Assembly (NCBI GenBank): GCA_029865985.1
Contig: JARXAF010000151.1
Coordinates: 36-64,035 of the forward strand
Source of the DNA: Verrucomicrobiota bacterium
GTDB taxonomy: Bacteria; Verrucomicrobiota; Verrucomicrobiia; Limisphaerales; UBA9464
Direction: 5' to 3'
Length of the DNA: 64,000 bases
Shown here in pieces: positions 3,977 to 16,783 of the stretch. The stretch's first letter is position 1, and each line of letters opens with the position of its first letter. A program made the translations under genes and the position numbers. Below the pieces are notes generated by a model. It did not search any database and was not told the DNA's origin. It saw only the letters and a program-made list of their open reading frames with translations.

Positions 3977-3997
3977 TGGAGCCGACTGTCGGGATTG
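3977..3997. repeat. island-distal att-type direct repeat (21-bp copy of the tRNA-Thr 3' end)
   Basis: TGGAGCCGACTGTCGGGATTG at 3977-3997 is identical to 16709-16729, which is the 3' end (including CCA) of the minus-strand tRNA-Thr. Confidence 0.85.
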
Positions 3998-4165
3998 CAC
4001 TATTCAAGCCCTCGGACAGACTCTTTTTAGCCGTTATTGCGGGGTTTTCAACCAATCACTCTCACTTTCCACTCGCCTCTTTCGCACTCTTTAGTGGCAA
4101 AAAGCGTGGCAACCATTTCTCAGACACCCAAACCGGCAAGAGACCTCTCAAGCAACCAGCAACAC

Positions 4166-4199
4166 AGAAAACCCCACCTCAGCCGAAGCTGAAGTGGGG
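4166..4199 (-). terminator. hairpin plus T-tract downstream of the Xis-like gene
   Basis: CCCCACCTCAGC (4172-4183) pairs with GCTGAAGTGGGG (4188-4199) with one mismatch and a 4-nt loop. On the minus strand the hairpin is followed by TTTT (complement of 4167-4170). Confidence 0.45.
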
Positions 4200-4266
4200 C
4201 ATTTAGTCTCTCTGCCAGTTTCCGGTAAACCTCCGAATGAATCGGCGTCAATTCAAGCGACCCAAC

Positions 4267-4632
4267 CTAGGCGTTTTTCTTCGACTTGGCCTTACACCGA
4301 TTTCGCAGATAGATCGCCTCTGTCGCCATCGACAGGCGTTCAACGTTGCCGCCCAAAGCAGCCACGTCCACCAAGGCGAAATACTTCACTGAGTTGTGCG
4401 ACGGACTACCAAGCGGCGACAATAGTTTCTCCCTAACCAAGATCGACATGTCGTCCTCATGGAAACCAAGGATTTCAGCCGCGTCAGTCGCAGAAAGACG
4501 GGCAGGTGGATGGGCGCGGTTCAAAAACCGGTCATGCTGCTTGGCGATGATTTCAACCTGTTGAGCTGCTGCAACACCGCCGAGATGACTTGGGGCTGGG
4601 TGACCAACCACCGTGTTACTGAAAACGCTCAT
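4267..4632 (-). CDS. small HTH DNA-binding protein, AlpA/Xis-like (candidate excisionase or regulator)
   Basis: ORF 4267..4671. The internal ATG at 4632 lies 2 nt after the stop of the upstream radical-SAM gene. HTH-like string LSATDAAEILGFHEDDMSILVREKLLSPLG. Sits next to the distal att repeat. Confidence 0.5.
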   Translation of the reverse strand: MSVFSNTVVGHPAPSHLGGVAAAQQVEIIAKQHDRFLNRAHPPARLSATDAAEILGFHEDDMSILVREKLLSPLGSPSHNSVKYFALVDVAALGGNVERLSMATEAIYLRNRCKAKSKKNA

Positions 4633-4634
4633 GT

Positions 4635-5807
4635 TTAGGCTACCATCCTTTCCTCGTTGGCGCAGGGCCATGCGCTAATCCGTCCCCAGCACCGATCCAA
4701 CCAAGCAGAGTGCTCTGCTCCTCGCTCTCGCCGCTGTTTTTGAGTCCCCAACGACTCATCCGGCCATGGGTGGAAACGGTCCGCGAGACCGAGCAGGTTC
4801 GCTACCTTCTCAGCGGCTCGTAACTGCCCTATCGCATACTCCACCCGACGTTCAGTGTTTTCAAAAACATCACCCCGAAAAGGCAAACCAATCGCCTCTG
4901 CCTCTTTCCGCATGCGGTCGATATTGCCACCTCTTAGGTTGATCGGCTCATGGAAGATGGTGACGGGATTCAAACGACCGACCTCACCAAGAACCGCCGC
5001 TAACTCCGCCTCACCCTGCTCTGGATAAGTCGGGGCCACTGCCGCGTAGACCGGAATCCCCTTCGCAGCTGCCAGCCGCAAAGTTTCCAACCTTCTCGAC
5101 GGGGCCGGAGCTTTCGGCTCGTACAGTCGCGCCAAACGATCATCAAGGGTCGGGATGCTCATCCCAAACAACAGGCGGTTCCCAAACGTTCGGTACAAAT
5201 CAAAGTCCTCCCGCGCTAGCGGACTTCGCGTCAAGATTCGCACGTTCAAGGTCGAGTGATCGCGGATCAGCTCAAGCATCCTTCGAACCATCACCCTAGC
5301 CTGAGAATTTAAGGCTGAGGTCTGAACCGGATTCTCACCCCTCAACGTCTGGTAGGCATCCGTCGTTGTGGACAACATCACTGCCCGATTCCCATCGGCA
5401 TTGAGTTCACCGATTGGCGTCTTCTCGGCGGCCCGAACCGAACTCAGGAATGCCCTCTCATCCCAGACCCGCAGGAAAGCGTACTGCCCCCACTGCTCAT
5501 CTGGGTCATCGACCCCAAGCCCCACCAGCTGCCCCTTGAGCTTGTTGACCGAGACACTGGGCACGTAGCAAAACCTACAGGCATGCTGACACCCCACGAA
5601 CGGATTAATTGACCAACAGCTTAAAGATTTATACTTAAAGCCGTTGCGGTTTATTGTGACTGGATGGTTCCAGATGTTTATTATTTTTTCATTTTTCACA
5701 CTTTTAAGCACTGTTTCACCTGCTGGTTCCTTTCTTGTTTTAGGGTTGCGTTTCTGGTCGGACGAAGCTGTATCTGCCTCGCCTTGGACTTGATTATTAA
5801 TAATCAC
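4635..5807 (-). CDS. radical SAM protein (COG1533 / SplB-like 'DNA repair photolyase' type)
   Basis: 390 aa. CxxxCxxC cluster in INPFVGCQHACRFCYVP (about 5564-5593), the NP(Y/F)xGCxHxCxYC pattern I recall for this family. The Lys/Asn-rich N-terminal 60 aa is encoded in AT-rich DNA. Confidence 0.75.
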   Translation of the reverse strand: MIINNQVQGEADTASSDQKRNPKTRKEPAGETVLKSVKNEKIINIWNHPVTINRNGFKYKSLSCWSINPFVGCQHACRFCYVPSVSVNKLKGQLVGLGVDDPDEQWGQYAFLRVWDERAFLSSVRAAEKTPIGELNADGNRAVMLSTTTDAYQTLRGENPVQTSALNSQARVMVRRMLELIRDHSTLNVRILTRSPLAREDFDLYRTFGNRLLFGMSIPTLDDRLARLYEPKAPAPSRRLETLRLAAAKGIPVYAAVAPTYPEQGEAELAAVLGEVGRLNPVTIFHEPINLRGGNIDRMRKEAEAIGLPFRGDVFENTERRVEYAIGQLRAAEKVANLLGLADRFHPWPDESLGTQKQRRERGAEHSAWLDRCWGRISAWPCANEERMVA

Positions 5808-6130
5808 AAAGAATTAGTATTTAATTCGAGATAACCCCCAATGCAAAATGCACTAGGCACGCCGTGACAATGCGAGACCAAAACACTCGTGCAAGTTTTT
5901 TTTGCGGATAGCGCAACTTTTTATTTTCTATCACAAAAATATTTTAAGTGATATTGTTTTTATATGAGATTGAATTCAACCATTCCACCACAAGCCCACC
6001 AAACCGAATCCAGATTTGTTGCCACCAACATACACATACAAACAAAACACCCCAACTTGTTAGCTGGGGCGGTGGCGCTATATTAGAAAGCAAGTTTTCC
6101 TATTTTTACATATGCATAAACTGCTTTATA

Positions 6131-6439
6131 TTATTTAGAAATCAGGCTTTTGTATATAGAATAAGATTTATTATTATGAATTTCTATTTCCCCCGTTTGC
6201 TCGACGAGACCCTGCGCTAGGAACGGGGCTAAGACAGCTTTCTCGATCGTCTCATAAAAAACCGGGTCCACCATCCGCGCGACGAGATAGGGTTTGACCT
6301 GCGCGAAGCTAAAAGTGGCTTGATTTTTGCAGATTTCGAAGAGCGCTGCGCGGGCAACTTGTTTTGACTTGTATTTTGATAGAATTATTTCCATGTAAAT
6401 ATTTACACGCGAAAAATCAGGTGTGAAATTAATTGACAA
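6131..6439 (-). CDS. hypothetical small protein (divergent partner of the wHTH gene)
   Basis: 102-aa ORF in the AT-rich block with no recognisable motif. Its divergent arrangement with 6610..7155 across a palindrome suggests a regulatory pair. Confidence 0.35.
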   Translation of the reverse strand: MSINFTPDFSRVNIYMEIILSKYKSKQVARAALFEICKNQATFSFAQVKPYLVARMVDPVFYETIEKAVLAPFLAQGLVEQTGEIEIHNNKSYSIYKSLISK

Positions 6440-6519
6440 ACTAGCCCCCGTATTATTGAAAATCTTTTGCGCAATTTGTGGAGAATAGGCGGGGGGAGGG
6501 TCAAATTTATTTCTCCCAC

Positions 6520-6535
6520 GATTATAATTATAATC
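6520..6535. promoter_or_regulatory. perfect 16-bp palindrome GATTATAATTATAATC (candidate operator)
   Basis: The sequence equals its own reverse complement. It lies in the 170-bp divergent intergenic region between 6131..6439(-) and 6610..7155(+). Confidence 0.4.
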
Positions 6536-6609
6536 CTTTCTATCAGATTAAAAACATTATCCCAACATTTACTTGCATCATGCTATAACTCACGCATTTT
6601 TCAAGCCGC

Positions 6610-7155
6610 ATGAGCACAGAATCCAGACAAAACGGCGCAAAAATCAATGAAAATTCTAAACTAGAAGCGCGCTTTGGGGGCGATAATTTTATCCAAGTCC
6701 CCGCGCGGATTATTATTTTAATTAATTCGGGCGCAATCAAACCGCTGGATGTTGTGATTTATATGATTCTACTGAATTACATGAACAGTGAAAAGAAAAC
6801 AGCGTGGCCTAGTATTGCCACTCTGGGAGCGGTCGTTCGGAGAGGCGAAAAAGCTGTAAGCGCGAGCATTGCGCGGCTTATCAAAGCTAAATTAGTTATA
6901 AGATACGGCGAATTAAACTGGAGGACTGCATTTACAGTGCCATTATTAATTATTTCTAAAGGCAAGGTAATTGATCAAACATCAAAATTTATTGATAAGA
7001 TCAAAAAAGACCAAACTGAAATCAATAAGATCGAAGAGATTAAGATTGAAATTAATAAAATAGAAGAGTTGAAAAACAACCAAAAAGCACCTTTTGCCCC
7101 GAATTACCTCCCAAAAGTGGGCGAAAATGGTGAAAATGATGAAATTCCTTTTTGA
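6610..7155 (+). CDS. winged-HTH protein of the phage/plasmid replication-initiator type (HTH_36-like)
   Basis: 181 aa. FIQVPARIIILINSGAIKPLDVVIYMILLNYMNSEKKTAWPSIATLGAVVRRGEKAVSASIARLIKAKLVI matches the 'FxxVPxxl...ls..k.vy..L...cfPS...La...g.s...v...i..L...glI' pattern. C-terminal coiled-coil repeats EINKIEEIK/EINKIEELK. Confidence 0.6.
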   Translation: MSTESRQNGAKINENSKLEARFGGDNFIQVPARIIILINSGAIKPLDVVIYMILLNYMNSEKKTAWPSIATLGAVVRRGEKAVSASIARLIKAKLVIRYGELNWRTAFTVPLLIISKGKVIDQTSKFIDKIKKDQTEINKIEEIKIEINKIEELKNNQKAPFAPNYLPKVGENGENDEIPF

Positions 7156-7355
7156 AGGGTACCCCCTTCGAAAATGACTGGAACCCCCTTCCTTTTCGAG
7201 GGTACTATCCTTCGTTTTTGACTGGCACCCCCCTCTTTATCGAGGGGCCACCCCTTCGAAAACGACATACAATCTATATTTAGTTATTTAGAATTAGTAT
7301 TCAGATTCAGTATTTAGAATAAGTATCTAAACCCAAAATAAAGAATTTAGAAAAT
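7154..7355. repeat. iteron-like repeat array followed by an AT-rich repeat tract (candidate replication origin)
   Basis: CCCCTTCGAAAAYGAC occurs at 7163-7178 and 7251-7266. CCTTCG(A/T)nTGACTGG occurs at 7165-7181 and 7209-7225. A small hairpin is CCCCTCtttatcGAGGGG. Then TATTTAG(AAT)-type units at about 7277, 7285, 7297, 7311, 7323 and 7343. The array starts immediately after the wHTH gene stop (7155). Confidence 0.5.
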
Positions 7356-7726
7356 CCTTGGCGCTAATCGCCGCCAAATGCTTTTCAGCCCTGCGGGCTA
7401 ATTTTGATTATTTTTAAAACTTCAGACTGAGTCTCCTGAGTGTTTTATACTCCCGCCGCTCGTTCTTAGCGTATAGGAGGGTAAAGAAATTAATTACGGG
7501 GGTTTATACTAAGGCTCTTGAGTCAGTGTTTTGGTTAAACTAGTCAAGTTTGTAATAATCTTACAACCTTTGACTTATAATTATGGCGAGTTAAGTACTG
7601 GCGCGCCGCGAAATATTCAAGAGCACATCTTTGATCTTCGGTTAAAACGTTTAAATTATGCGCGCCGAATTTTTCGGCTACAAATTTTTGATAAAATGCC
7701 TCCCCTCGGAATAGGATGTTTCCGAG

Positions 7727-9124
7727 ATGGGGCGAAAATTTACAAACGTGAAAGTCGGTGTTGAATTAGACTCATTATTATCGCGCGAATCATTATTTCA
7801 AGGCGAAGGTTACAAGGGCATTAGCGCATGTCAGGAATTTATGGAGCTAGTGGCTTGGTTTAGCAGTCAGTCCGAGGATAATACAGCAGGCATCGGGCGT
7901 GAGAGAATTGCTGACCTATTCAACCCATACAAAATCAAGTACACATCCGCGATTTCAGTTTTAGATTCTGTAGGGATATTATATAAATGCCGAAATGGAT
8001 TTTATAATAAATTTACTAAAGACGGGAAGGTTTCTCGGTTCAAGATTACTGATTTAGGCATGCGCCTTTTGGTTGATGGCCAGCGAGAGTACCTAAGAAA
8101 ACTTCATAATGACCCTGATGAAGACAGGAGAGTTCGAAACAACAGGAGACTCAAGAAAAAGCGGCAAAAAGATGTTCTTGGACCTGTTGAATCAATTATC
8201 AATAATAATTTATTTGATTTAGAATACAGTAAAGAAGATTTTGCGCGGTTTTGGCGCGAAAAGTGCGTTTATTTTACACCCGGGGAACAATTTAATATTA
8301 ATTATTCAGTAGATAACATCAAGCACGGAAGTTTTAATGATATTATTAAAAATAAAAAAGATGGGCGAATTCATCATATCTGGGTTTTGATGAAAAGCGA
8401 CGCGCGGCCCCTGTTTCGGTTGCGCGGCAAGCCGTATTCTCGGATTTTAGACATTCGCGGCTGTCATCCGACCTTCTGGGCGAGTTTTGTTCTTGATTAT
8501 CTTTGTAAGAAAAAGAAAGACTATGAGTTAATTAATAATACTGTAGATATAACTAATAATGTAATATCTAATATAAGTAATAATACTATATCTCCCATCT
8601 CCTATTCCCTATCCCCTCTAGGATCCCTACATTACTCGTATGGAAATGTCGATGAATTAGTAAATGAGTGGTCAAAATGGACCACCTTGTGGACAAACCC
8701 TGACATCGACCCGCGAAATCTGATAGCCCAAGACCTTGGAAATGGTGAAACCAAGGACACGGTGAAGCTGCTGGTTAACTCCGCCATGAACGGTTATAAG
8801 AACGGAGTTTTTAAGTGGATCTGCAAGAATTATCCTGCCTTGAGCTCAATCTGGCTCCAAACCGACCTCAAGCTCACAGGCGTTCAGATCAGCAAATTTT
8901 ATGAGACCCGACTGATTTTGGATCCCGGGATATTCGAACTCGCAGCAGAGCTTGGGCTCGATATTCTGGCGGAGCATGATGGCTTAGGCATTTTTGCCGC
9001 CGAGGGAGATCCAGACGTTGACCAGAAGGCTCAGGCGTTGGCGGCGCGAATTGGGGATAATTGTCTGAGATTATTTGGCTTTAGGGCCGTGGTGAAGGTA
9101 AAGAGGGTGGGTAGAGGCGATTAG
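7727..9124 (+). CDS. hypothetical protein: N-terminal wHTH-like region plus C-terminal region with family-A polymerase-like motifs
   Basis: 465-aa ORF. Motif strings: KKDGRIHH (aa 210-217), RILDIRGCHPTFWASF (aa 239-254), DPRNLIAQDLGNGETKDTVKLLVNSAMNGYKNG (aa 328-360), LAEHDGLGIF (aa 414-423), FRAVVKVKRVG at the C-terminus. Asn/Ile/Ser low-complexity insert at aa 262-300. Coding is likely and function is speculative. Confidence 0.6.
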   Translation: MGRKFTNVKVGVELDSLLSRESLFQGEGYKGISACQEFMELVAWFSSQSEDNTAGIGRERIADLFNPYKIKYTSAISVLDSVGILYKCRNGFYNKFTKDGKVSRFKITDLGMRLLVDGQREYLRKLHNDPDEDRRVRNNRRLKKKRQKDVLGPVESIINNNLFDLEYSKEDFARFWREKCVYFTPGEQFNINYSVDNIKHGSFNDIIKNKKDGRIHHIWVLMKSDARPLFRLRGKPYSRILDIRGCHPTFWASFVLDYLCKKKKDYELINNTVDITNNVISNISNNTISPISYSLSPLGSLHYSYGNVDELVNEWSKWTTLWTNPDIDPRNLIAQDLGNGETKDTVKLLVNSAMNGYKNGVFKWICKNYPALSSIWLQTDLKLTGVQISKFYETRLILDPGIFELAAELGLDILAEHDGLGIFAAEGDPDVDQKAQALAARIGDNCLRLFGFRAVVKVKRVGRGD

Positions 9125-10278
9125 GGTTGGCCCGGGGGCAAAACACAGCGGAAACCGCTATCGACGGTGCGACTAAAGCTTGGATTTCCACCGTCGTAGC
9201 GGTACCAAACAATGCAGTAGTTTGCATTTATGTACCAACTACCACCGCGCATCACCCGGAACGAACCCGAAGTTGGTCCCCTCGGGTCAATCTGAAGGGC
9301 AGAAGAATACTCTCCCGACCACCAATCCCAGCACCACTCAAAAACATTCCCCGCCATGTCATACAATCCATACCCGTTGGCTTCATATGATCCAACCGGC
9401 ATCGTTCCTTTAATATCTGATGGAGTTTCAGGATAATTTGCTAACCTAGGGCTTCTCTCGTCCGTTCCCCATGGATACAACTTCCCTTCCACTCCTCCAC
9501 GAGCTGCTTTCTCCCACTCTGCTTCTGTTGGCAGTCGATAGCCTACATCCCATTTCACAGCGAGAGGCACCTTCTTGCCACTTCGATATACTTGAATCGT
9601 TGATACATCCTCATAGTAAGCCGCCCCCCGACCTTCCTTCTCTGACCGAGCATTACACCATTTGACTGCATCAAACCAATTAATATTCTTCACCGGATGT
9701 TTCGCGCCCGAACCATCACCCGCTGCTAGATCATAGCCATGTGCATTACCCCATGCTCGCACATTTTCCCACAAATCCAACGAAACCTCCCATTTATCCA
9801 TCGCAAATGCAGACACATTTACGGTGTGCTCTGCGTTGGCGGCTAACCCTGTACTCCCCATCCGGAAGAGGCCAGCTTTGATCAATGACATTCCATCAGG
9901 GGGTGACCATTCATCATTTGCTCCAATCCGATACCGAAACTTTGTTCCATACTGATTCGCCATTTCCTTCCCCGCATCCCAGACCAACTTTTTAGCAGGC
10001 CCCGGAGCAATGTGCTGCCCGACATCACCACTCACCAACTCAACGGGGCCTTTCCACGTTTTACCACCATCCGGCGACACCTTGAGGTAAACTGTCAGGG
10101 TTGGGCTGTCCGGATCTACCACATCATAGGTGATATCCACCAACCGCGATCCCTCGCGCTGTTTCGCCTGCACGTTGGAAACAACAGGGTCCACGGCGAG
10201 TACCTGCCACGCTGAGGCAACCATCAGCCAAATGGCGAGTAGGTTGGCTGGGTGGAATCGGCCTGATCTGGTTGTCAT
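9121..10278 (-). CDS. FGE-sulfatase (SUMF1/formylglycine-generating-enzyme-like) domain protein with N-terminal beta-sandwich domain
   Basis: 385 aa with a signal-like N-terminus. HPVKNINWFDAVKWCNARSEKEG, YRLPTEAEWEKAARGG, NGYGLYDMAGNVFEWCWDWW, RVMRGGSW...GFRCV. Confidence 0.85.
   Translation of the reverse strand: MTTRSGRFHPANLLAIWLMVASAWQVLAVDPVVSNVQAKQREGSRLVDITYDVVDPDSPTLTVYLKVSPDGGKTWKGPVELVSGDVGQHIAPGPAKKLVWDAGKEMANQYGTKFRYRIGANDEWSPPDGMSLIKAGLFRMGSTGLAANAEHTVNVSAFAMDKWEVSLDLWENVRAWGNAHGYDLAAGDGSGAKHPVKNINWFDAVKWCNARSEKEGRGAAYYEDVSTIQVYRSGKKVPLAVKWDVGYRLPTEAEWEKAARGGVEGKLYPWGTDERSPRLANYPETPSDIKGTMPVGSYEANGYGLYDMAGNVFEWCWDWWSGEYSSALQIDPRGPTSGSFRVMRGGSWYINANYCIVWYRYDGGNPSFSRTVDSGFRCVLPPGQP
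9950..10200. repeat. about 250-bp near-identical direct repeat, copy 1 (5' region of FGE paralogue 1)
   Basis: Aligns by eye at about 90% identity with 14655-14905, with the first about 43 nt identical. The rest of the two genes is much more diverged at DNA level. Confidence 0.7.
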
Positions 10279-10329
10279 AGGGTCAAAAGATTCTTGGTGT
10301 CGGGAAACGTTAGAACGGGCTGATTTCGC

Positions 10330-13300
10330 CTATCTGACCCGCACACGCCAGAACTTGGCTTGAACATTGGGGTCCGTCTGCAAGGTCACTTTGACTGGCG
10401 TGCTGGTGCCTTGCCCGGTTACCCGCTCGGTTTCTACCCATGTGTTTAGATCGCCGGTCGTCTCCACTGCGACCGTGGCTCCCTGAGTGGCAAGAATCTC
10501 TAGAGTCATGGATCCGTCCGCTTTGAGCGGCTGGAGGCTGATTTGCGGCGGCGTGTTCACGGTGCCACCACCGCTTTGAATGACCACCGCCACTGGATCC
10601 ACAGGGCGCACATCAAAGCCGCTACCAGTGATCTCCATCTGCTCCAGCTTCAAGGGCCACTCGGCTTGCGCACTGAATCCCGCACTCGGCACGAAGGTCA
10701 GCACTGCGGCCACACCTGTCGCATCTGCCCACGCTGTAGACCGGATCGCCGCCAAACTTACCTGACCCGCGCTTTCATTCCAGAACGGCAGGGCATCGCC
10801 GGGGACCATGGCTCCCACCTGCTTGTCGGTGAGGCTCAGGCTGGCCGGGTACTTCAGGGCAAAGCTCAAACCCGACAAATTGCCCTTCACCCGGTTCAAC
10901 CGCAGTGCCACTCGGTAAGGCTGTCCAACGGTCGCCTTCGGCCCATCCAACAACTCGATTCCCATCGCGTCGTTGGTGTTCACCAAAACCTTGGCAAAGC
11001 CCAAGGCCATTGCCAAACGCTTGCCCTCGCTGCCGGGACTGGGTTGCGGATCCAGACCCACCACCGTGCGGAGAGCTTTAATAACGTCGCCGTTGTCCAA
11101 ACTCAGGGAACCATTCAGATCGTTCAGCCCGACATCCCAGCTGCGCGCCTCCTCCAAGCCAACAAGGAGCCTTGAGACCACCACCGCGTCGCCGATATCG
11201 ATTCGTTGGTTAGCGTTGTTGTCGCCCTTGATCTTGCGCGGGCGAATCCGTCCCTCGCCAGCAACGGCCCCATTCCCTGCAGCCAGCAACGTTCCACTCG
11301 GATTGGCCAGACTGACGATTGAAGGACTCAAGACCACATTCGTCTGCACAGGGACGCTCCTTGCTCTGAAATCTACCCTTCCTAAAGCGGCAGTGCCGGA
11401 TGCCAACGCCGTTCCCGGTAATGAGAACGAACCTGATACCTCGCCAGCCACTAAGGTGTTCACGCTGTTCACGCTCTGGCCAACCACAGCGGACCACTCC
11501 ACTTTAGGATCCGCCAGAAACGCTGCGTTGTAGTTCAGCTTGAAGGTCAATCCACCGACATCACCTGTCGAAACCATGCTTAAGGGGAAGACGATCCGCT
11601 GGCCCTCCTGCACTTCAACCGCCGATCCAGCGATCAGGGTCCGGATTGGTTTCCAGACCACTTCGCGCCGGATGACGGACACATTCCCCGCCGTATCCTC
11701 GGCAGTGACCTCAATGAGATTGGTTCCCACCACCAGATTCAGGTTCCCAACGGAAAAACCTCCACCCGTCAGGTTTAAATCTCCCTGAGAGATGCCATTC
11801 CATGACCACCTAACCCCTCGCAAACTCACAGCATCAGAAGCTGTCCCAGAAAGACTGAAACGCTGGTCTTCCACCGCTCCACTCACCGGCTGCGTCACCG
11901 TTAAGACAGGGGGTTCCCCATCCGTGAACTCAGCCACAATCGCTTCGGTTCGCCCCACCACAACGGAGGTCATGGCGTTGGTTCCACTGGCACCGCCAGA
12001 CCATCGAAGGAATCTCCAACCGGCTTGCGCTTGGGCCGTCAGCGTCACAGTTGTTCCGGGCAAGAACGATTGTCCTTCTGGGGTTCTTGAAACCGTCCCA
12101 GATCCCAGAACCTTGGTCGTCAGAGTTCCAAGGCGCGCAAACTCGGCGATCACTCGCTTGGGCGCATCTACAGTCACCCCAGCCTCTTGGGTGGTTGTCA
12201 AAATATCTCCAGACCACTGCACGAAACCCCAACCCTCGGCGGGCTTGGCGGTCAAGGCCACGGCCGTGCCCTCCGGGTAATTTGCATCCGGTGGGCTCAA
12301 AAGAATTTGACCTTCTCCTCTTACCTCGGTCGCCACTGGATAGACTGCCTTGAATGTCGCTGTCGCAGACACAGGACCAGCTACTGTGATGCGGACCCTC
12401 TTTTGTGAACTGCTCACCGCACCAGTCCAACCCGCGAAAAGAGCACTGCCGGTAGTTTCAGCGACGAGTTCCACATCGGATCCTGCTTCGTAAGCCCCCA
12501 GATCCGGTACTCGACGCACTGTTCCGGGACCAGCGGTCGCAACCGTAACCGGATAACTGGCCACGCCAACCTTCCGAAAACCAGCTTTTACGGTCTTGCT
12601 GGAATCGAGAACCACCGTCAGCGGATTCTCTGATCCACTCGCATCCCCGCTCCAGTTGGTGAATTCGTATCCAGCTTCAGCAACTGGCGTAAGAACCACC
12701 GAGGTGCCTTTGGCGTAGATCCCATCCACTGCTAATTGAGTCACTCGACCGCCTAACGTGCTCTGAGCGGTCAGCACGGCCTTGTCGGTGGCAAGAGATT
12801 GAAACAGCGCGGTAATCTTCGGCGTGGCGTTGGTCACTTTCAGGATCCATTCACTCTTCGGCTGCCCCGTTCCCACACCACCCCAAAGGGCTAGGGCAAA
12901 ACCCGCGTTGGGTGCAGGAATCACTCGAACCTCTGTGCCATACGGATACACCGCCAGTGCTGGTTCCAAGATGATCTGGCCGCTGCCGGTGGCTACGTTG
13001 CTGATCGTGGTGCCAAAGTTCGCCACGAAGGAGGCGGGCGACTCGACAGTCCACGAAAAACTGGAGTCCGTTCCTACAAAGTCTCCAGCCCACCCGAGAA
13101 AACTCCATCCGGTTGAAGGCGTGGCCTGAAGCTGCACCGTGGACCCTTGATAGTAAGACCCGCTCCCAGTCACCGATCCCCCCTTAGCTGTCGCGGCCAA
13201 CGTGTATCGGGGAATTGCCTCAAAAACCGCTCCCACCGTCTTGTCTCGGCTCATCGCCACATTTCGATCCGGGAACGCACCGGACAAATCCACTTCCCAC

Positions 13301-13800
13301 CGCGCAAACCGCCATCCACTAGCTGGAACGGCTTTGACCCCGACAACCTCATCTTGCAGATAGCGGGCATTTGCGGGCGTCCGTTCAACTTGACCGCTGC
13401 CGGTCACCGGCGTGGACAGTGTGAAAGTCGGGACGATTTGGAGGCTCACCGGCTCAACCGTTCCTGTTTCGGTGAAATCTTCGCTCAAGAAAAACTGCCG
13501 CACCACGGAACTGCGCGTGATCGTGAAGGGCACCGTGTAGGGCGTCGAATTGAGAGACGGTTCAGAACCATCCAAGGTGTAGAAAAGCTGCCCGTTGGCA
13601 AAACGGTTCACCAACTGAACCACCGCCTTGTCGCCGATGCGGGTCGCGCTATCTATTTCGGCTCCATTTGCTATTAATTTGGGGTATGTGTCTAGAGTGA
13701 TTTCAGTGGAGTCAGCTTCGTGAATTCCAGCGAAAGCTAGAGGCGCGAATAGCGCAATAAGAATCGCATCGAAAAACCAGTGTTTAGACATGTAACACAT
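10330..13800 (-). CDS. giant secreted surface protein: CHB_HEX_C-like domain, 7 divergent InlB B-repeats, Ig-like domain, cohesin-like, dockerin-like, cohesin-like, C-terminal beta-sandwich
   Basis: 1156 aa with a signal-like N-terminus. QLFYTLDGSEPSLNSTPY. Seven about 68-aa repeats end in GWRFARWEVDLSG / GWSFLGWAGDFVG / GYEFTNWSGDASG / GWGFVQWSGDI / GWRFLRWSGGASG and similar (about 11923-13422). Dockerin-like DNNANQRIDIGDAVVVSRLLVG...NDLNGSLSLDNGDVIKALRTVVG (about 11045-11235). Cohesin-like GGLTFKLNYNAAFL and LSGLSFALKYPASLSL. Confidence 0.85.
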   Translation of the reverse strand: MCYMSKHWFFDAILIALFAPLAFAGIHEADSTEITLDTYPKLIANGAEIDSATRIGDKAVVQLVNRFANGQLFYTLDGSEPSLNSTPYTVPFTITRSSVVRQFFLSEDFTETGTVEPVSLQIVPTFTLSTPVTGSGQVERTPANARYLQDEVVGVKAVPASGWRFARWEVDLSGAFPDRNVAMSRDKTVGAVFEAIPRYTLAATAKGGSVTGSGSYYQGSTVQLQATPSTGWSFLGWAGDFVGTDSSFSWTVESPASFVANFGTTISNVATGSGQIILEPALAVYPYGTEVRVIPAPNAGFALALWGGVGTGQPKSEWILKVTNATPKITALFQSLATDKAVLTAQSTLGGRVTQLAVDGIYAKGTSVVLTPVAEAGYEFTNWSGDASGSENPLTVVLDSSKTVKAGFRKVGVASYPVTVATAGPGTVRRVPDLGAYEAGSDVELVAETTGSALFAGWTGAVSSSQKRVRITVAGPVSATATFKAVYPVATEVRGEGQILLSPPDANYPEGTAVALTAKPAEGWGFVQWSGDILTTTQEAGVTVDAPKRVIAEFARLGTLTTKVLGSGTVSRTPEGQSFLPGTTVTLTAQAQAGWRFLRWSGGASGTNAMTSVVVGRTEAIVAEFTDGEPPVLTVTQPVSGAVEDQRFSLSGTASDAVSLRGVRWSWNGISQGDLNLTGGGFSVGNLNLVVGTNLIEVTAEDTAGNVSVIRREVVWKPIRTLIAGSAVEVQEGQRIVFPLSMVSTGDVGGLTFKLNYNAAFLADPKVEWSAVVGQSVNSVNTLVAGEVSGSFSLPGTALASGTAALGRVDFRARSVPVQTNVVLSPSIVSLANPSGTLLAAGNGAVAGEGRIRPRKIKGDNNANQRIDIGDAVVVSRLLVGLEEARSWDVGLNDLNGSLSLDNGDVIKALRTVVGLDPQPSPGSEGKRLAMALGFAKVLVNTNDAMGIELLDGPKATVGQPYRVALRLNRVKGNLSGLSFALKYPASLSLTDKQVGAMVPGDALPFWNESAGQVSLAAIRSTAWADATGVAAVLTFVPSAGFSAQAEWPLKLEQMEITGSGFDVRPVDPVAVVIQSGGGTVNTPPQISLQPLKADGSMTLEILATQGATVAVETTGDLNTWVETERVTGQGTSTPVKVTLQTDPNVQAKFWRVRVR

Positions 13801-13831
13801 TTTAATTTAACAATTTAATATCAAAACTAAA

Positions 13832-14980
13832 TTAAATCCCCGGAGGCAAGACACAACGAAAACCATAAGCTGTATTATCCCTCCAGCCCGGTGGATCTGT
13901 AACACGGTATCGTATGGCCAAACGACAATTTGTAACAGGGGTGATCCAACTGCCACCGCGAAAAACGCGCCCTGTTTTATACTGGTCTTGTATCGGACTG
14001 TTTGGACCATGCGGATCATTTTGAGGCACAAGAGGATAATTATCGTACCAATCCCAACACCATTCAAACAAGTTTCCAGCCACATCATACAACCCATAGC
14101 CGTTTGCAGGATATGTGCCAATAGGCGTTGTTTTATTTGTTCCACAAGTTAAATTTCCTAGGGCGATTGCTTCGTCACCCCACGGGTATAATTTACCATT
14201 TAAACCACCGCGCGCCGCTTTTTCCCACTCTGCCTCGGTCGGTAGTCTATAACCGCTTCGCCATCTAACTTGTGGTGAAACTGCCTCTCCACGTCGAAAA
14301 ACCTGAGTTAAACCAGTGTCTAAATAATATGCCGGAACCAGTCCAGACTTTTCACTTCTCGCATTATTCCACTTAACGGCCTCTGACCAAGATACAGAAT
14401 TAACCGGGTGCCTTGGTCCGTAGCTTTCGCCTTGAATAATATCATAGCCATGAGAATTACCCCAGCGTCTTACTTCTTCCCATAACTCAATCGAAACCTC
14501 CCACTTGTCTATAGCATACGATGAGAGCGTTACCTGACGGACGGAGGTATCAAGACGGTCATCACCCATTTGAAAACGCCCAGCAAGGATGAGAACCATA
14601 CCAGACGGAACCTGCCAATCGTTCGCCCCAACTTTATACCGAAAATTTGCGCCGTACTGATTCGCCATTTCCTTCCCCGCATCCCAGACCAACTTTTTAG
14701 CAGTCCCGGGTGCAATGTGCTGTCCGACATCCCCACTCACCAACTCAACCGGACCTTTCCAAGTTTTACCACCGTCCGGCGACACCTTCAGGTACACCGT
14801 TAGGGTCGGGCTGTCCGGATCCGCCACGTCATAGGTGATATCCACCAACCGTGATCCCTCGCGTTGCTTGGCCTGCACGTTTGAGACAATCGGGTCCACC
14901 GCCAGTGCTTGAATGGCCCCCATCAGGCAGCATGCAGTTCTTAGAATCTTCCGCAGAGAAAGGGGCAGACAGGTTGTCAT
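13832..14980 (-). CDS. FGE-sulfatase domain protein, paralogue 2
   Basis: ORF 13832..15034, with a likely start at ATG 14980 (MTTCLPLSLRKIL..., signal-like). YRLPTEAEWEKAARGG, NGYGLYDVAGNLFEWCWDWY, RVFRGGSW...YGFRCVLPPG. The N-terminal about 85 aa is nearly identical to paralogue 1. Confidence 0.85.
   Translation of the reverse strand: MTTCLPLSLRKILRTACCLMGAIQALAVDPIVSNVQAKQREGSRLVDITYDVADPDSPTLTVYLKVSPDGGKTWKGPVELVSGDVGQHIAPGTAKKLVWDAGKEMANQYGANFRYKVGANDWQVPSGMVLILAGRFQMGDDRLDTSVRQVTLSSYAIDKWEVSIELWEEVRRWGNSHGYDIIQGESYGPRHPVNSVSWSEAVKWNNARSEKSGLVPAYYLDTGLTQVFRRGEAVSPQVRWRSGYRLPTEAEWEKAARGGLNGKLYPWGDEAIALGNLTCGTNKTTPIGTYPANGYGLYDVAGNLFEWCWDWYDNYPLVPQNDPHGPNSPIQDQYKTGRVFRGGSWITPVTNCRLAIRYRVTDPPGWRDNTAYGFRCVLPPGI
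14655..14905. repeat. about 250-bp near-identical direct repeat, copy 2 (5' region of FGE paralogue 2)
   Basis: See 9950-10200. Same orientation, about 4.7 kb apart, bracketing the giant gene. Confidence 0.7.
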
Positions 14981-15451
14981 CGGGTTGGGACTTGAAATTT
15001 GCGATGCAACGCCAAACGGTTGCTGGGCGGACATTTGTGGGAGTCTCTCACCCCTTTCTTGCCCTGAATAGGGGGGAAATCTGGTTAAACCAGAAAATAT
15101 TTCGTAACGGGCAACGGGCGAAAAGGAGGGGCGCGAATGGTTACAGATGTAATTTTTGGAAAGGCCGCCTGCACTCAGGTGGCGAACATCGGGGACTTGT
15201 ATACTCTCACTTGCATACTCCGCGCCGAAAACTGGGTCACTTGGTGTCCAAGTCTGTCCAAGAGGTAACGGTTATAATCCTTTGAAATGGGCCTGAAATG
15301 GCACTTTTGACCGAGGGAGAGGAAATCTGTCTGAGGAGGGGAAAACAATTTCGAGATGTGATCCGCTGAGTCTTCCGGCTGACAGAGATGTGGGAATTTA
15401 CCCACCTCCCTCTCGGCTAGTTGCCGCCTCCACGGAATTAAGGCGTCTCTC

Positions 15452-16531
15452 TTAGGCAGCAATCCTGATCTCTTGAACTCCTGCTTCAATCCTTGCCCTA
15501 GCAATGGTCAACCGCCGCACCTCGGTCAGTTCCTCAAGGCATGGAACATGGAGTTCTGCACGTCTTGCGTATGCTCGATGGACTGCTTTGCTGCCATGGC
15601 CCAGCGCAGCTTGGGCAAATCTCTCAGGCATTCCCGCGATTGCTGCCCTCTCTGCCCATGCATAGCGATGACTATGGATCGTAACTCCTTCGATCCCAAG
15701 GCCTGAACAGCGCTGCTTGAATACCGTAGCCCTGTCGCATGCGCGCAGTTTTACTAGGTAAGGAAACAGCGGGCCACTAGTTGGCAAGGTTTTCAGGACT
15801 TCTGCGCACTCGCGACCAAAGGCTTGATGGCAGAGGGCCTTGGTTTTTCGACGGATGAACGTGACCGTCCCACGCTCCCAATCGATATTTTCTGCGCGAA
15901 GATGAGCCATGTCCGAATTGCTTCCGCCAAAAAACCAACAGAGTTGGTAGTAGGCGCGCCTCTCAGGGTGAGTCTCCTGACTCATGATCATCTCATGCTG
16001 TTCTGAGGTGATCGCAATTTTCGGGCTGAAAACCACTTTGGGCCAGTAAGACTTCGTTAGAATCGGCTTGTGAATCCAGCTCAACTCCAGAGCGAAGTTA
16101 TGGAATCGGCGGAGAAAGACGTTGGTGGCGACGCCACCGTTTCGGATCACCTCGAAGATCTCTGTGGCCTTGGTCTCTCCAACGGCGCGATCCAGCAGGG
16201 GAAGCAGGGCCTTGTCCTTCGCTGCATTTTCAATTCGCTCTTGCGTTGATTTGCCGCGCTTTTTGCAGATGAGACACTCTTCAATAACCCTGCGCCATGT
16301 GTGGCTTTTGGCCTCGGGATCACCTTCCCGCAGGTAGGCGTTCCCCACCTCTTTGGCCATTGCAGGCAGGGTCCTGCCCATAATTCTTGCGTCCAGAATT
16401 CGCTGGGCCTGCTGGGGATCCTTGGTCTTGAGGCTGGTGTGCTTGGGTTTTCCTTGGGTTTCGTCCACAAAGTAGAAGTACCCTGAGGCTTGGCGGCGGT
16501 AGATGCGGTAGGAGTTTGGAATGACCTTCAT
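15452..16531 (-). CDS. tyrosine-type site-specific recombinase/integrase
   Basis: ORF 15452..16651, with a likely start at ATG 16531 (MKVIPNSYRIYRR). C-terminal catalytic signature HSHRYAWAERAA...LGHGSKAVHRAYAR (HxxR ... H ... Y). Adjacent to tRNA-Thr. Confidence 0.9.
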   Translation of the reverse strand: MKVIPNSYRIYRRQASGYFYFVDETQGKPKHTSLKTKDPQQAQRILDARIMGRTLPAMAKEVGNAYLREGDPEAKSHTWRRVIEECLICKKRGKSTQERIENAAKDKALLPLLDRAVGETKATEIFEVIRNGGVATNVFLRRFHNFALELSWIHKPILTKSYWPKVVFSPKIAITSEQHEMIMSQETHPERRAYYQLCWFFGGSNSDMAHLRAENIDWERGTVTFIRRKTKALCHQAFGRECAEVLKTLPTSGPLFPYLVKLRACDRATVFKQRCSGLGIEGVTIHSHRYAWAERAAIAGMPERFAQAALGHGSKAVHRAYARRAELHVPCLEELTEVRRLTIARARIEAGVQEIRIAA

Positions 16532-16708
16532 AATGTCGGTCCAAAGGCTAGAGTAGCCAACCCCGCACTCCTTACCCCTGAGTAAGAGGTGACTGAAGGA
16601 GAGTGGCGGCAAGTGATCCCGACCCGTCTCCAGTGGCAATTTCCGTGGCACTGCTTGAGACAGTTTCTAGAAAATCGCCGTTTTCCTGAGGAAAACCGCA
16701 AAAAAAAT

Positions 16709-16729
16709 TGGAGCCGACTGTCGGGATTG
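16709..16729. repeat. tRNA-proximal att-type direct repeat (within tRNA-Thr)
   Basis: Identical to 3977-3997. Confidence 0.85.
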
Positions 16730-16783
16730 AACCGACGACCCACGGTTTACAAAACCGTTGCTCTGCCGCTGAGCTAAGCCGGC
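16709..16783 (-). tRNA. tRNA-Thr (anticodon UGU), CCA encoded
   Basis: The reverse complement folds as a cloverleaf: GCCGGCT TA GCTC AGCGGC AGAGC A ACGGT TTTGTAA ACCGT GGGTC GTCGG TTCAATC CCGAC AGTCGGC T CCA. The anticodon loop is TT-TGT-AA. Confidence 0.92.

Follow-up and report, generated by a model that had tools for sequence, protein, structure and literature searches.

A probable TV-Pol-like relative of family-A DNA polymerases with an additional N-terminal domain, encoded in an integrative island of a Verrucomicrobiota bacterium

TV-Pols were defined by Iyer, Abhiman and Aravind (2008, Biol Direct 3:39; PMC2579912) as minimal proteins of mobile elements and small viruses that are related both to family-A DNA polymerases and to T7-type RNA polymerases and never carry nucleases. 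In these proteins, a two-helix antiparallel thumb precedes the palm, which has two Asp residues; a hairpin carries an invariant Arg, and the fingers contain an acidic residue and an RxxxK motif (PMC2579912). In one subset, the core is extended by an N-terminal domain and the genes show linkage to lambda-type integrases, resolvases, or transposases; hosts include verrucomicrobia and planctomycetes, and the authors predicted primase-polymerase activity (PMC2579912). Here, we analyzed 64,000 nucleotides of contig JARXAF010000151.1 from a Verrucomicrobiota bacterium (hereafter, the window, in which all positions are given) and focused on an open reading frame (ORF) of 465 amino acids (aa) at 7727-9124. 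Its product is, with high confidence, a family-A-fold, TV-Pol-like polymerase homologue. With moderate confidence, we favor the fuller reading, which includes an inferred role, that it is a divergent TV-Pol-type primase-polymerase of an excised mobile element.

Two further groups bear on the comparison. The divPolA2 proteins, which barbaviruses, ICP1, and related phages encode (Yutin et al. 2024, Virol J 21:200; PMC11348598) have an apparently active palm, no exonuclease, and no canonical thumb, and may be repair polymerases or RNA polymerases (PMC11348598). CcPol of SCCmec, together with MP, an SSB-like protein (SSB, a protein that binds single-stranded DNA), is a dNTP-using primase that requires two predicted catalytic Asp residues (Bebel et al. 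2020, eLife 9:e55478; PMC7581432), and this was extended to PolA-SSB pairs in Bacillota (Rice 2023; PMC10061031). Primases are almost all of the DnaG or archaeo-eukaryotic (AEP) type; family-A-derived primases are a recent exception, represented biochemically by one two-protein complex, CcPol-MP. The family described here is a compact single-chain test case, in which a Pol I-type active site that lacks the usual motif-B tyrosine is fused to a predicted DNA-binding domain.

Two alignments of the family were used, one of 27 sequences and one of 70 sequences reaching down to 18% identity; counts out of 70 refer to the latter. The gene and its parts are as follows (pLDDT, predicted local distance difference test).

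7727..9124, + strand: polymerase-like gene, 465-aa ORF with an ATG start; TV-Pol-type (minimal family-A-like)
7754..8101, + strand: N-terminal domain (aa ~10-125), probable winged helix-turn-helix; pLDDT 82 in a separate AlphaFold2 (AF2) model
8114..8326, + strand: helical region (aa ~130-200), candidate thumb, assigned by position
8354..8377, + strand: KKDGRIHH segment with invariant R214, proposed hairpin Arg, from conservation, placement on Pol I 646-661, and alignment to the GGR of divPolA2
8441..8476, + strand: proposed motif A, ILDIRGCHPTFW, with D242 and R244, from conservation, position at a strand end, and alignment to divPolA2
8510..8641, + strand: Asn/Ile/Ser-rich linker (aa 262-305) in the fingers, variable and disordered (pLDDT below 50 over residues 263-305)
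8708..8797, + strand: fingers segment D328-P-R...K343xxxK347xxxN351xxxN355-G356, proposed pre-motif B and motif B, from conservation, with the register set by transitivity
8860..9124, + strand: GC-rich 3' segment, a recombination mosaic common to otherwise divergent homologues
8867..8917, + strand: helix aa 381-397 (TGxxISKxYET) with invariant E393 (I388 in 64/70, G385 in 63/70), a possible counterpart of Pol I helix Q
8966..8995, + strand: proposed motif C, LAEHDGLGIF, whose D418 occupies the turn of a beta hairpin, from conservation and placement on Pol I 877-886 (QVHDELVF)

The predicted fold is that of a family-A polymerase. The AF2 model, built on the 27-sequence alignment, had a mean pLDDT of 81 and a predicted template modelling score (pTM) of 0.66, and only residues 263-305 were disordered. 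When it was searched against the PDB with Foldseek, all 50 best matches were family-A DNA polymerases (E 3e-4 to 4e-2, best probability ~1.0), among them the apicoplast polymerase, Aquifex Pol I, KlenTaq, Klenow, T7 gp5, and the POL domain of M. smegmatis Pol1. Among the predicted viral structures of BFVD, the matches were far stronger: the best were two phage proteins of ~400 aa (TM-score 0.57-0.67, E ~1e-10, best 9e-11), one of which is annotated as 'putative DNA polymerase I', and the list also contained ~400-450-aa Vibrio and Aeromonas phage proteins of the divPolA2 type and virophage TV-Pol replication proteins. In the model, D242 of motif A ends beta strand 235-243, D418 of motif C lies where strand 412-415 turns into strand 419-423, and eight helices stand between the two residues. 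Compared with the helix order of Klenow, this modelled strand-helices-strand order is the palm-fingers-palm topology of family A. No DEDD exonuclease fold is present, the N-terminal 200 aa being modelled as a winged helix and helices, and no nuclease gene is a conserved neighbor.

Profile-profile comparison with hhalign pointed to the same enzymes. The family profile was compared with a canonical PolA profile (E. coli Pol I 520-928, T7 gp5, and seven diverse phage PolAs), a divPolA2 profile (AUR84708 and five relatives), and a profile of the putative TV-Pol of Microcystis phage Ma-LMM01 (MAP_030) and four homologues, each comparison being calibrated with 32 column-shuffled versions. The score was 44.0 with divPolA2 (null 14.7 +/- 2.7; z = 10.8) and 28.5 with canonical PolA (null 13.2 +/- 2.3; z = 6.5), and in both cases 0/32 shuffles reached it. 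Placed freely on the PolA profile, the KKDGRIHH block fell on Pol I 646-661 (KTGRVHTSY), and motif C with the C-terminal block fell on Pol I 876-919 (QVHDELVF, helix R, and the last strand). A sequence-only reading of this DNA had matched these same two blocks by eye and had proposed a compact Pol-A-like palm and fingers without an exonuclease; the hhalign placements bore out the first of these statements, and the fold search and the calibrated scores the second. Because both approaches recover family-A polymerases, the resemblance goes beyond chance. An unrelated fold or function with a coincidental likeness would fit the modest PDB Foldseek E-values (3e-4 at best), the low global TM-scores, and the lack of an HMMER-level match to any polymerase family; yet the top PDB matches are one enzyme family in 50 of 50 cases, the BFVD matches reach E 1e-10 and TM 0.6, and the profile scores stand 6-11 standard deviations over the shuffled nulls with blocks landing on the right Pol I motifs, so that we give such a coincidence hardly any credence.

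The two remaining motifs were placed by way of intermediates. The divPolA2 profile is collinear with Pol I over 199 columns (R668, D705, D732 of DIH, R754/K758, and D882). The R214 block aligns to a divPolA2 GGR whose Pol I counterpart is R668, and D242 aligns to the divPolA2 motif A Asp, which maps to Pol I D705, with an identical Arg-to-Asp spacing of 28 residues in the family and in divPolA2. With the direct placement on Pol I 646-661, R214 may therefore equal either of two Pol I Arg residues. It is only by this transitive route that the motif A equivalence of D242 is suggested. In the fingers, the family block lies on divPolA2 with DPR over DPY and K347 over the motif-B Lys, and K..LAVING of the Ma-LMM01 group aligns with Pol I K758..LIYG767. 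The register in which K347 corresponds to K758 appears the more likely one, since the invariant Lys and the Asn-Gly pair are functionally sensible only there. All four motifs of the Ma-LMM01 group are collinear with the family profile, and its signatures GLRVYE, YDVVKCHATI, VKTAVLAVING, and QHDGA are strikingly like the family motifs (D..KCHAT, K..L..ING, and QHDG being near-identical). When hhalign was run against single sequences, the motifs were aligned but the statistics were unusable. In HMMER, the family hidden Markov model (HMM) matched no ORF of Ma-LMM01 or of Vibrio phage 1.063.O, AUR84708 included, which places the relationship beyond HMM-to-sequence range.

Conservation singles out the same positions. 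R214, D242, K347, N355, and E393 are each present in 70/70 sequences, followed by D418 (69/70), R244 (67/70), and G356 and G419 (64/70 each); position 314 is Glu in 68/70 and Asp in the remaining two, and D328 is found in 53/70. The proposed catalytic positions are conserved in the 27-sequence alignment as well. The proposal that D242, K347, Y357, and D418 are catalytic therefore agrees with the conservation of three of the four residues, whereas Y357 is not conserved and the N355-G356 pair (G356 at +9 from K347) is found instead. The spacing from motif B to motif C is 71 residues here versus 124 in canonical family A, in line with the earlier remark that it is much shorter than in known Pol A enzymes. 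A clean hairpin around R214 is not visible in the AF2 model. Motif C reads HDG in most members, and residue 419 is Glu in 5/70, giving DE as in canonical Pol I; the second motif-C carboxylate may have been lost within the family. In P0003, the closest NCBI/JGI homologue (88% identical), the motif reads EHGGLG with Gly at 418, which points to a sequencing error or to an inactivated copy.

A catalytically dead polymerase fold that serves as a DNA-binding replication initiator or scaffold would be in keeping with the missing motif-B Tyr and second motif-C carboxylate, with Gly at 418 in P0003, and with the vestigial RRM-only relatives described by Rice 2023 (PMC10061031). However, if the protein were not catalytic, it would be difficult to account for the invariance of both metal-binding Asp residues, the hairpin Arg, and the fingers Lys among 70 sequences with identities as low as 18%, and we regard a dead enzyme as most improbable.

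Several observations weigh against reading the protein as a TV-Pol-type primase-polymerase. No TV-Pol other than CcPol has been characterized, including any with an N-terminal domain (PMC7581432). By HMMER, neither the protein nor the 70 members matched PF00476 (DNA_pol_A) or another polymerase family, and no link from the family to any named family was found. Global TM-scores against PDB polymerases are low (0.2-0.38). Aligned directly on Pol I by hhalign, the motif A block alone is misplaced, off Pol I motif A, and residues 332-373 are set on Pol I 771-798 (helices O1/O2) and not on the O-helix, so that the fingers register is ambiguous; the registers of the sequence-only reading thus gain indirect support, for motif A through divPolA2 and for motif B through divPolA2 and Ma-LMM01, but none from direct alignment. 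The score with the Ma-LMM01 group (26.7, P = 0.018) is not significant alone, as 1/32 shuffles reaches it; its null (mean 19.0) contains one shuffle at 134.6, probably a composition artefact of a shallow five-sequence alignment, which makes this null unreliable, and MAP_030 is a putative member of the class of Iyer et al., identified from context. No helicase or SSB partner is encoded near the gene, unlike in most TV-Pols, and no circular (excised) contig was found. In the active site, Asn355 replaces the universal motif-B Tyr in 70/70 sequences, His247 occupies the position of the steric-gate Glu, E710 (49/70), and Asn351 that of F762 (46/70); these pocket changes make the substrate, and even template dependence, uncertain.

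The altered pocket also bears on the idea of a single-subunit RNA polymerase, or of a primase that makes RNA primers, in which the winged helix would find a promoter or origin and the PolA-like core would make RNA. Motif C, as HDG, has one carboxylate as in T7 RNA polymerase (RNAP; HDS), not the HDE of Pol I, and His247 and Asn351 present no obvious 2'-OH barrier. The same possibility was raised for divPolA2 (PMC11348598), and T7 RNAP finds promoters through an N-terminal DNA-binding domain (PMC10061031). However, no RNA polymerase occurs among the top 50 PDB Foldseek matches, and T7 RNAP showed no similarity in hhalign. That enzyme selects ribose with its motif-B Tyr, Y639, where the family has Asn355. 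The sole characterized relative uses dNTPs (PMC7581432). We consider this reading unlikely.

The N-terminal third of the protein has a different character. In a fold search, the separate N-terminal model matched winged-helix proteins only (MarR, PadR, GntR, TFE, and a plasmid initiator), with weak scores (best E 0.055). The model thus makes it plausible that aa ~10-125 form a winged helix-turn-helix DNA-binding domain, and the earlier suggestion of such a domain agrees with the kind of matches obtained. Long helices at 130-150, 153-163, 169-182, and 185-200 appear in both the full-length and the N-terminal models, the whole of 109-200 being helical, and they make aa ~130-200 a candidate thumb-like element; the statement that the protein has no obvious thumb could not be established. 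The architecture would then consist of a probable winged helix (aa ~10-125), thumb-like helices (~130-200), and a shortened palm with fingers (~205-465).

How does the family compare with the described systems? It shares with TV-Pols the exonuclease-free core, the hairpin Arg, two palm Asp residues, the fingers Lys, an N-terminal domain, and integrase- or resolvase-linked elements. It differs in that no link to an established member reached statistical significance at the sequence level; TV-PolN is predicted to be all-helical (PMC2579912), whereas the model here shows a winged helix with a beta wing; and the first position of RxxxK (-4 from K347) is basic in only 31/70. In addition, no D5-type helicase was found in the 70 members or the neighborhoods examined, although the integrase-linked subset does not require one, and the island in the window pairs the polymerase gene with a Rep-like initiator and iterons. 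With divPolA2, the family shares a size of ~430 aa, the absence of an exonuclease and apparently of a canonical thumb, an unrelated N-terminal globular domain, apparently active palm motifs, and a profile match from the hairpin Arg to motif A (~50 residues, P 7e-5). In contrast, divPolA2 is the second polymerase of large lytic phage genomes and not of integrative islands, its motif B reads R..K....NC versus K...N...NG in the family, similarity outside the N-terminal part of the palm is not significant, and tblastn and HMMER do not connect the groups. The alignments thus indicate that the family is related to divPolA2 and is not a member of it.

CcPol-MP likewise has an A-family core in an integrative element; its own features are two essential predicted metal-binding Asp residues and de novo priming, and it is the only biochemically characterized TV-Pol. 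CcPol keeps the Glu (E710) and Phe (F762) where the family has His and Asn, no HMMER similarity to PDB or Pfam entries was found, and no OB-fold SSB or helicase gene is adjacent here. Canonical family-A enzymes agree with the family in the palm and fingers fold and in the order of hairpin Arg, motif A Asp, fingers Lys, motif C Asp, and C-terminal helix and strand. The family differs from them in lacking 3'-5' and 5'-3' exonucleases, in the apparent absence of the beta10-beta11 region, in the replacement of the motif-B Tyr by Asn, of the second motif-C carboxylate by Gly, and of the steric-gate Glu by His, and in the presence of a winged-helix-like N-terminal domain. The protein belongs to a known kind of enzyme, although strict TV-Pol membership is not provable statistically, and the enzyme type has a precedent in the class described in 2008 (PMC2579912).

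The gene lies in an integrative island with the following features.

3977-16783, no strand: integrative island, 12.75 kb, recognized by a perfect 21-bp direct repeat, a tyrosine integrase, and a tRNA-Thr
3977..3997, no strand: distal attachment (att)-type repeat, 21 bp, a perfect repeat of 16709-16729 (blastn-short E 4e-6)
4267..4671, - strand: 134-aa ORF, 41% identical (E 3e-17) to a small gene adjoining the integrase in a related element (L003)
4635-5807, - strand: radical-SAM gene (PHROG 13321, E 4e-28; weak match to the 'radical SAM mobile pair protein B' model)
6131..6439, - strand: 102-aa ORF, conserved in related elements (L003_84, L030_94)
6610..7155, + strand: HTH_36/phage-O-like replication initiator gene, 181 aa (Pfam HTH_36 E 8e-6; PHROG primosomal/O-like initiators)
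7145..7266, no strand: iteron array of 22-nt units with a 44-nt super-period, kept in locus L031 and absent from locus L030
7285..7336, no strand: 13-nt AT-rich tandem repeats, a candidate unwinding element, also in L031
15452..16651, - strand: tyrosine integrase, 399 aa (PF00589 E 7.6e-9), directly beside the tRNA-Thr gene
16709..16783, - strand: tRNA-Thr(tgt), integration target, whose 3' 21 nt are the proximal att repeat

The recurrence of the 3' 21 nt of the tRNA-Thr gene at 3977-3997 delimits the island. From left to right, it carries the 134-aa ORF, the radical-SAM gene, the 102-aa ORF, the HTH_36 initiator gene, the iterons, and the polymerase gene, followed by an FGE-sulfatase gene, a 1156-aa repeat protein gene, a second FGE-sulfatase gene, and the integrase gene. 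The HTH_36 gene is upstream of the polymerase gene, and the FGE-sulfatase gene downstream of it is convergent. The radical-SAM gene is 80% identical in L031 and therefore travels with the element. The cargo comprises the two FGE-sulfatase-domain genes and the 1156-aa product, an InlB-B-repeat/cohesin-like surface protein. A small plasmid was considered for the window copy and rejected because of the lack of plasmid matches and of circular contigs and the integration between att repeats.

Taken as a TV-Pol-type primase-polymerase, the enzyme may act as follows. After excision, the circular element would have to replicate or become double-stranded. The N-terminal domain would bind DNA, and the enzyme would start, and perhaps extend, synthesis on the excised element, as CcPol-MP does, with the fused domain in place of a separate SSB partner; the host replisome would take over after initiation. 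In the window island, it would probably work with the adjacent HTH_36 initiator and the iteron/AT-rich origin. More tentatively, the protein might be a self-contained, sequence-targeted primase-polymerase that needs neither SSB nor helicase and whose remodelled pocket accepts unusual substrates (ribonucleotides or mixed primers), a possibility to which we give a minor share of our confidence. In related loci, no OB-fold or helicase neighbors were detected, small neighbors being compared with Pfam and PHROGs only.

The polymerase gene and its surroundings are mosaic. The gene is inside a low-GC stretch (~5800-9100, 39-41% GC, with surroundings at ~60%), and within it GC content steps from 31-40% until ~8600 to 45-57% from there to the stop codon. 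The window and L031 are 85% identical at the DNA level over 5800-7831, a span covering the end of the radical-SAM gene, the 102-aa ORF, the Rep-like (HTH_36) gene (81% at the protein level), the iterons, and ~100 nt at the start of the polymerase gene. They are essentially unalignable over 7831-8860 (L031 3086-4136), and alignment resumes over 8860-9158 at 78%. The two polymerase proteins are ~51% identical overall, yet 88-95% over aa 421-462; the same segment is 88-95% identical to P0010, P0011, and P0013, with 35-57% elsewhere in the protein. The alignments thus indicate that related elements have swapped the body of this gene in situ, a ~50%-identical version taking its place with the flanks kept. 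This exchange between homologous genes explains the GC step. The GC shift and the Asn/Ile/Ser-rich insert are real, as had been pointed out, and the accompanying caveat that the ORF could be a fusion of unrelated pieces or separate genes falls away; a fusion of two unrelated genes was rejected because all homologues are full-length with the same architecture and the GC shift reflects recombination between homologues. The body swap resembles the 'polymerase swapping' reported in phages.

The linker at aa 262-305 differs widely in length among homologues in the 27-sequence alignment and is almost missing in P0060. Its coding region contains tandem DNA repeats of 12, 24, and 7 nt at 8547-8617, which suggest that the linker grows and shrinks by slippage.

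The Rep-like gene and the iterons form another exchangeable unit. Compared with L030, the whole polymerase gene is 84% identical, and the Rep-like gene with the iteron block (~6513-7671) is absent (L030 2263-2317). No comparable iteron arrays lie beside the polymerase gene in L001, L003, L007, L009, or L011. The block is therefore a cassette in its own right with which the polymerase gene need not be paired, and iterons as a general partner of the polymerase were rejected on these grounds. The iteron array reported next to the gene thus exists (7145-7266, with the AT-rich repeats at 7285-7336), but as part of a Rep-like module that is separable from the polymerase. These comparisons draw attention to ~12-kb tRNA-targeting islands with their own replication module, in which the polymerase body and the Rep/iteron block are swapped as cassettes.

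The family is large. A large-database search with the 465-aa protein returned 60 homologues, all full-length and all without a name, and an exhaustive profile search, with clusters formed at 50% identity, returned 404 representatives, of which 139 had E <= 1e-30; most of the 404 are 400-560 aa long. Scans of the protein against Pfam, NCBIfam, PHROGs, and PADLOC gave no match, no Pfam domain (a helicase domain included) was found in 70 diverse members, and sequence searches of the PDB with the single sequence and with the profile gave no match to a solved PolA. No match was found by tblastn among PLSDB plasmids and INPHARED phages or for the polymerase family in IMG/VR, and among GTDB species representatives there was a single matching locus, in a Verrucomicrobiota metagenome-assembled genome. 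Neither Pfam nor NCBIfam thus has a model for the family, no source names it, and we advise annotating its members as TV-Pol-like polymerases instead of hypothetical proteins.

Related elements share the layout of the window island in part. The locus of a 41% identical polymerase (P0041; L003) has the same module order, with a tRNA-Leu gene, an integrase gene, homologues of the two small ORFs (134 and 102 aa), the polymerase gene, and an FGE-sulfatase gene; the element (4656-16736, also in L004 and L005) is marked by a 29-bp repeat of the tRNA-Leu 3' end, 12.05 kb apart, and its integrase is 33% identical to that of the window island over 350 aa (E 3e-56). As an FGE-sulfatase-domain gene is found here too, such sulfatase-maturase-like genes look like recurrent cargo. 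The polymerase gene of P0057 is flanked by a resolvase and a large serine recombinase, those of P0056 and L007 adjoin serine recombinases, and L030 has an integrase-like gene. Across the family, the conserved partners are recombinases, not known defence effectors.

This distribution bears on an anti-phage or anti-plasmid defence or exclusion function of the island, for example through untemplated or aberrant DNA synthesis upon infection, which we deem quite unlikely. Defence genes are frequent in integrative islands, Rice raised the defence possibility for PolA-SSB primases (PMC10061031), putAbiC lies close to the polymerase gene in a P0057 element, and the replacement of the polymerase body in situ while its flanks stay near-identical resembles arms-race-driven swapping. 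Nevertheless, PADLOC gave no match for the protein, its neighbors, or two distant homologues, the window gene stands directly beside a Rep-like initiator and iterons, and recombinases are the partners in the family; we retain a replicative role on the excised element as the preferred reading. The P0057 elements (L010-L015) also carry HTH_17 (excisionase-like) and HTH_3 genes along with putAbiC; they are ~12 kb long and occur in at least 20 bog and peat metagenome contigs.

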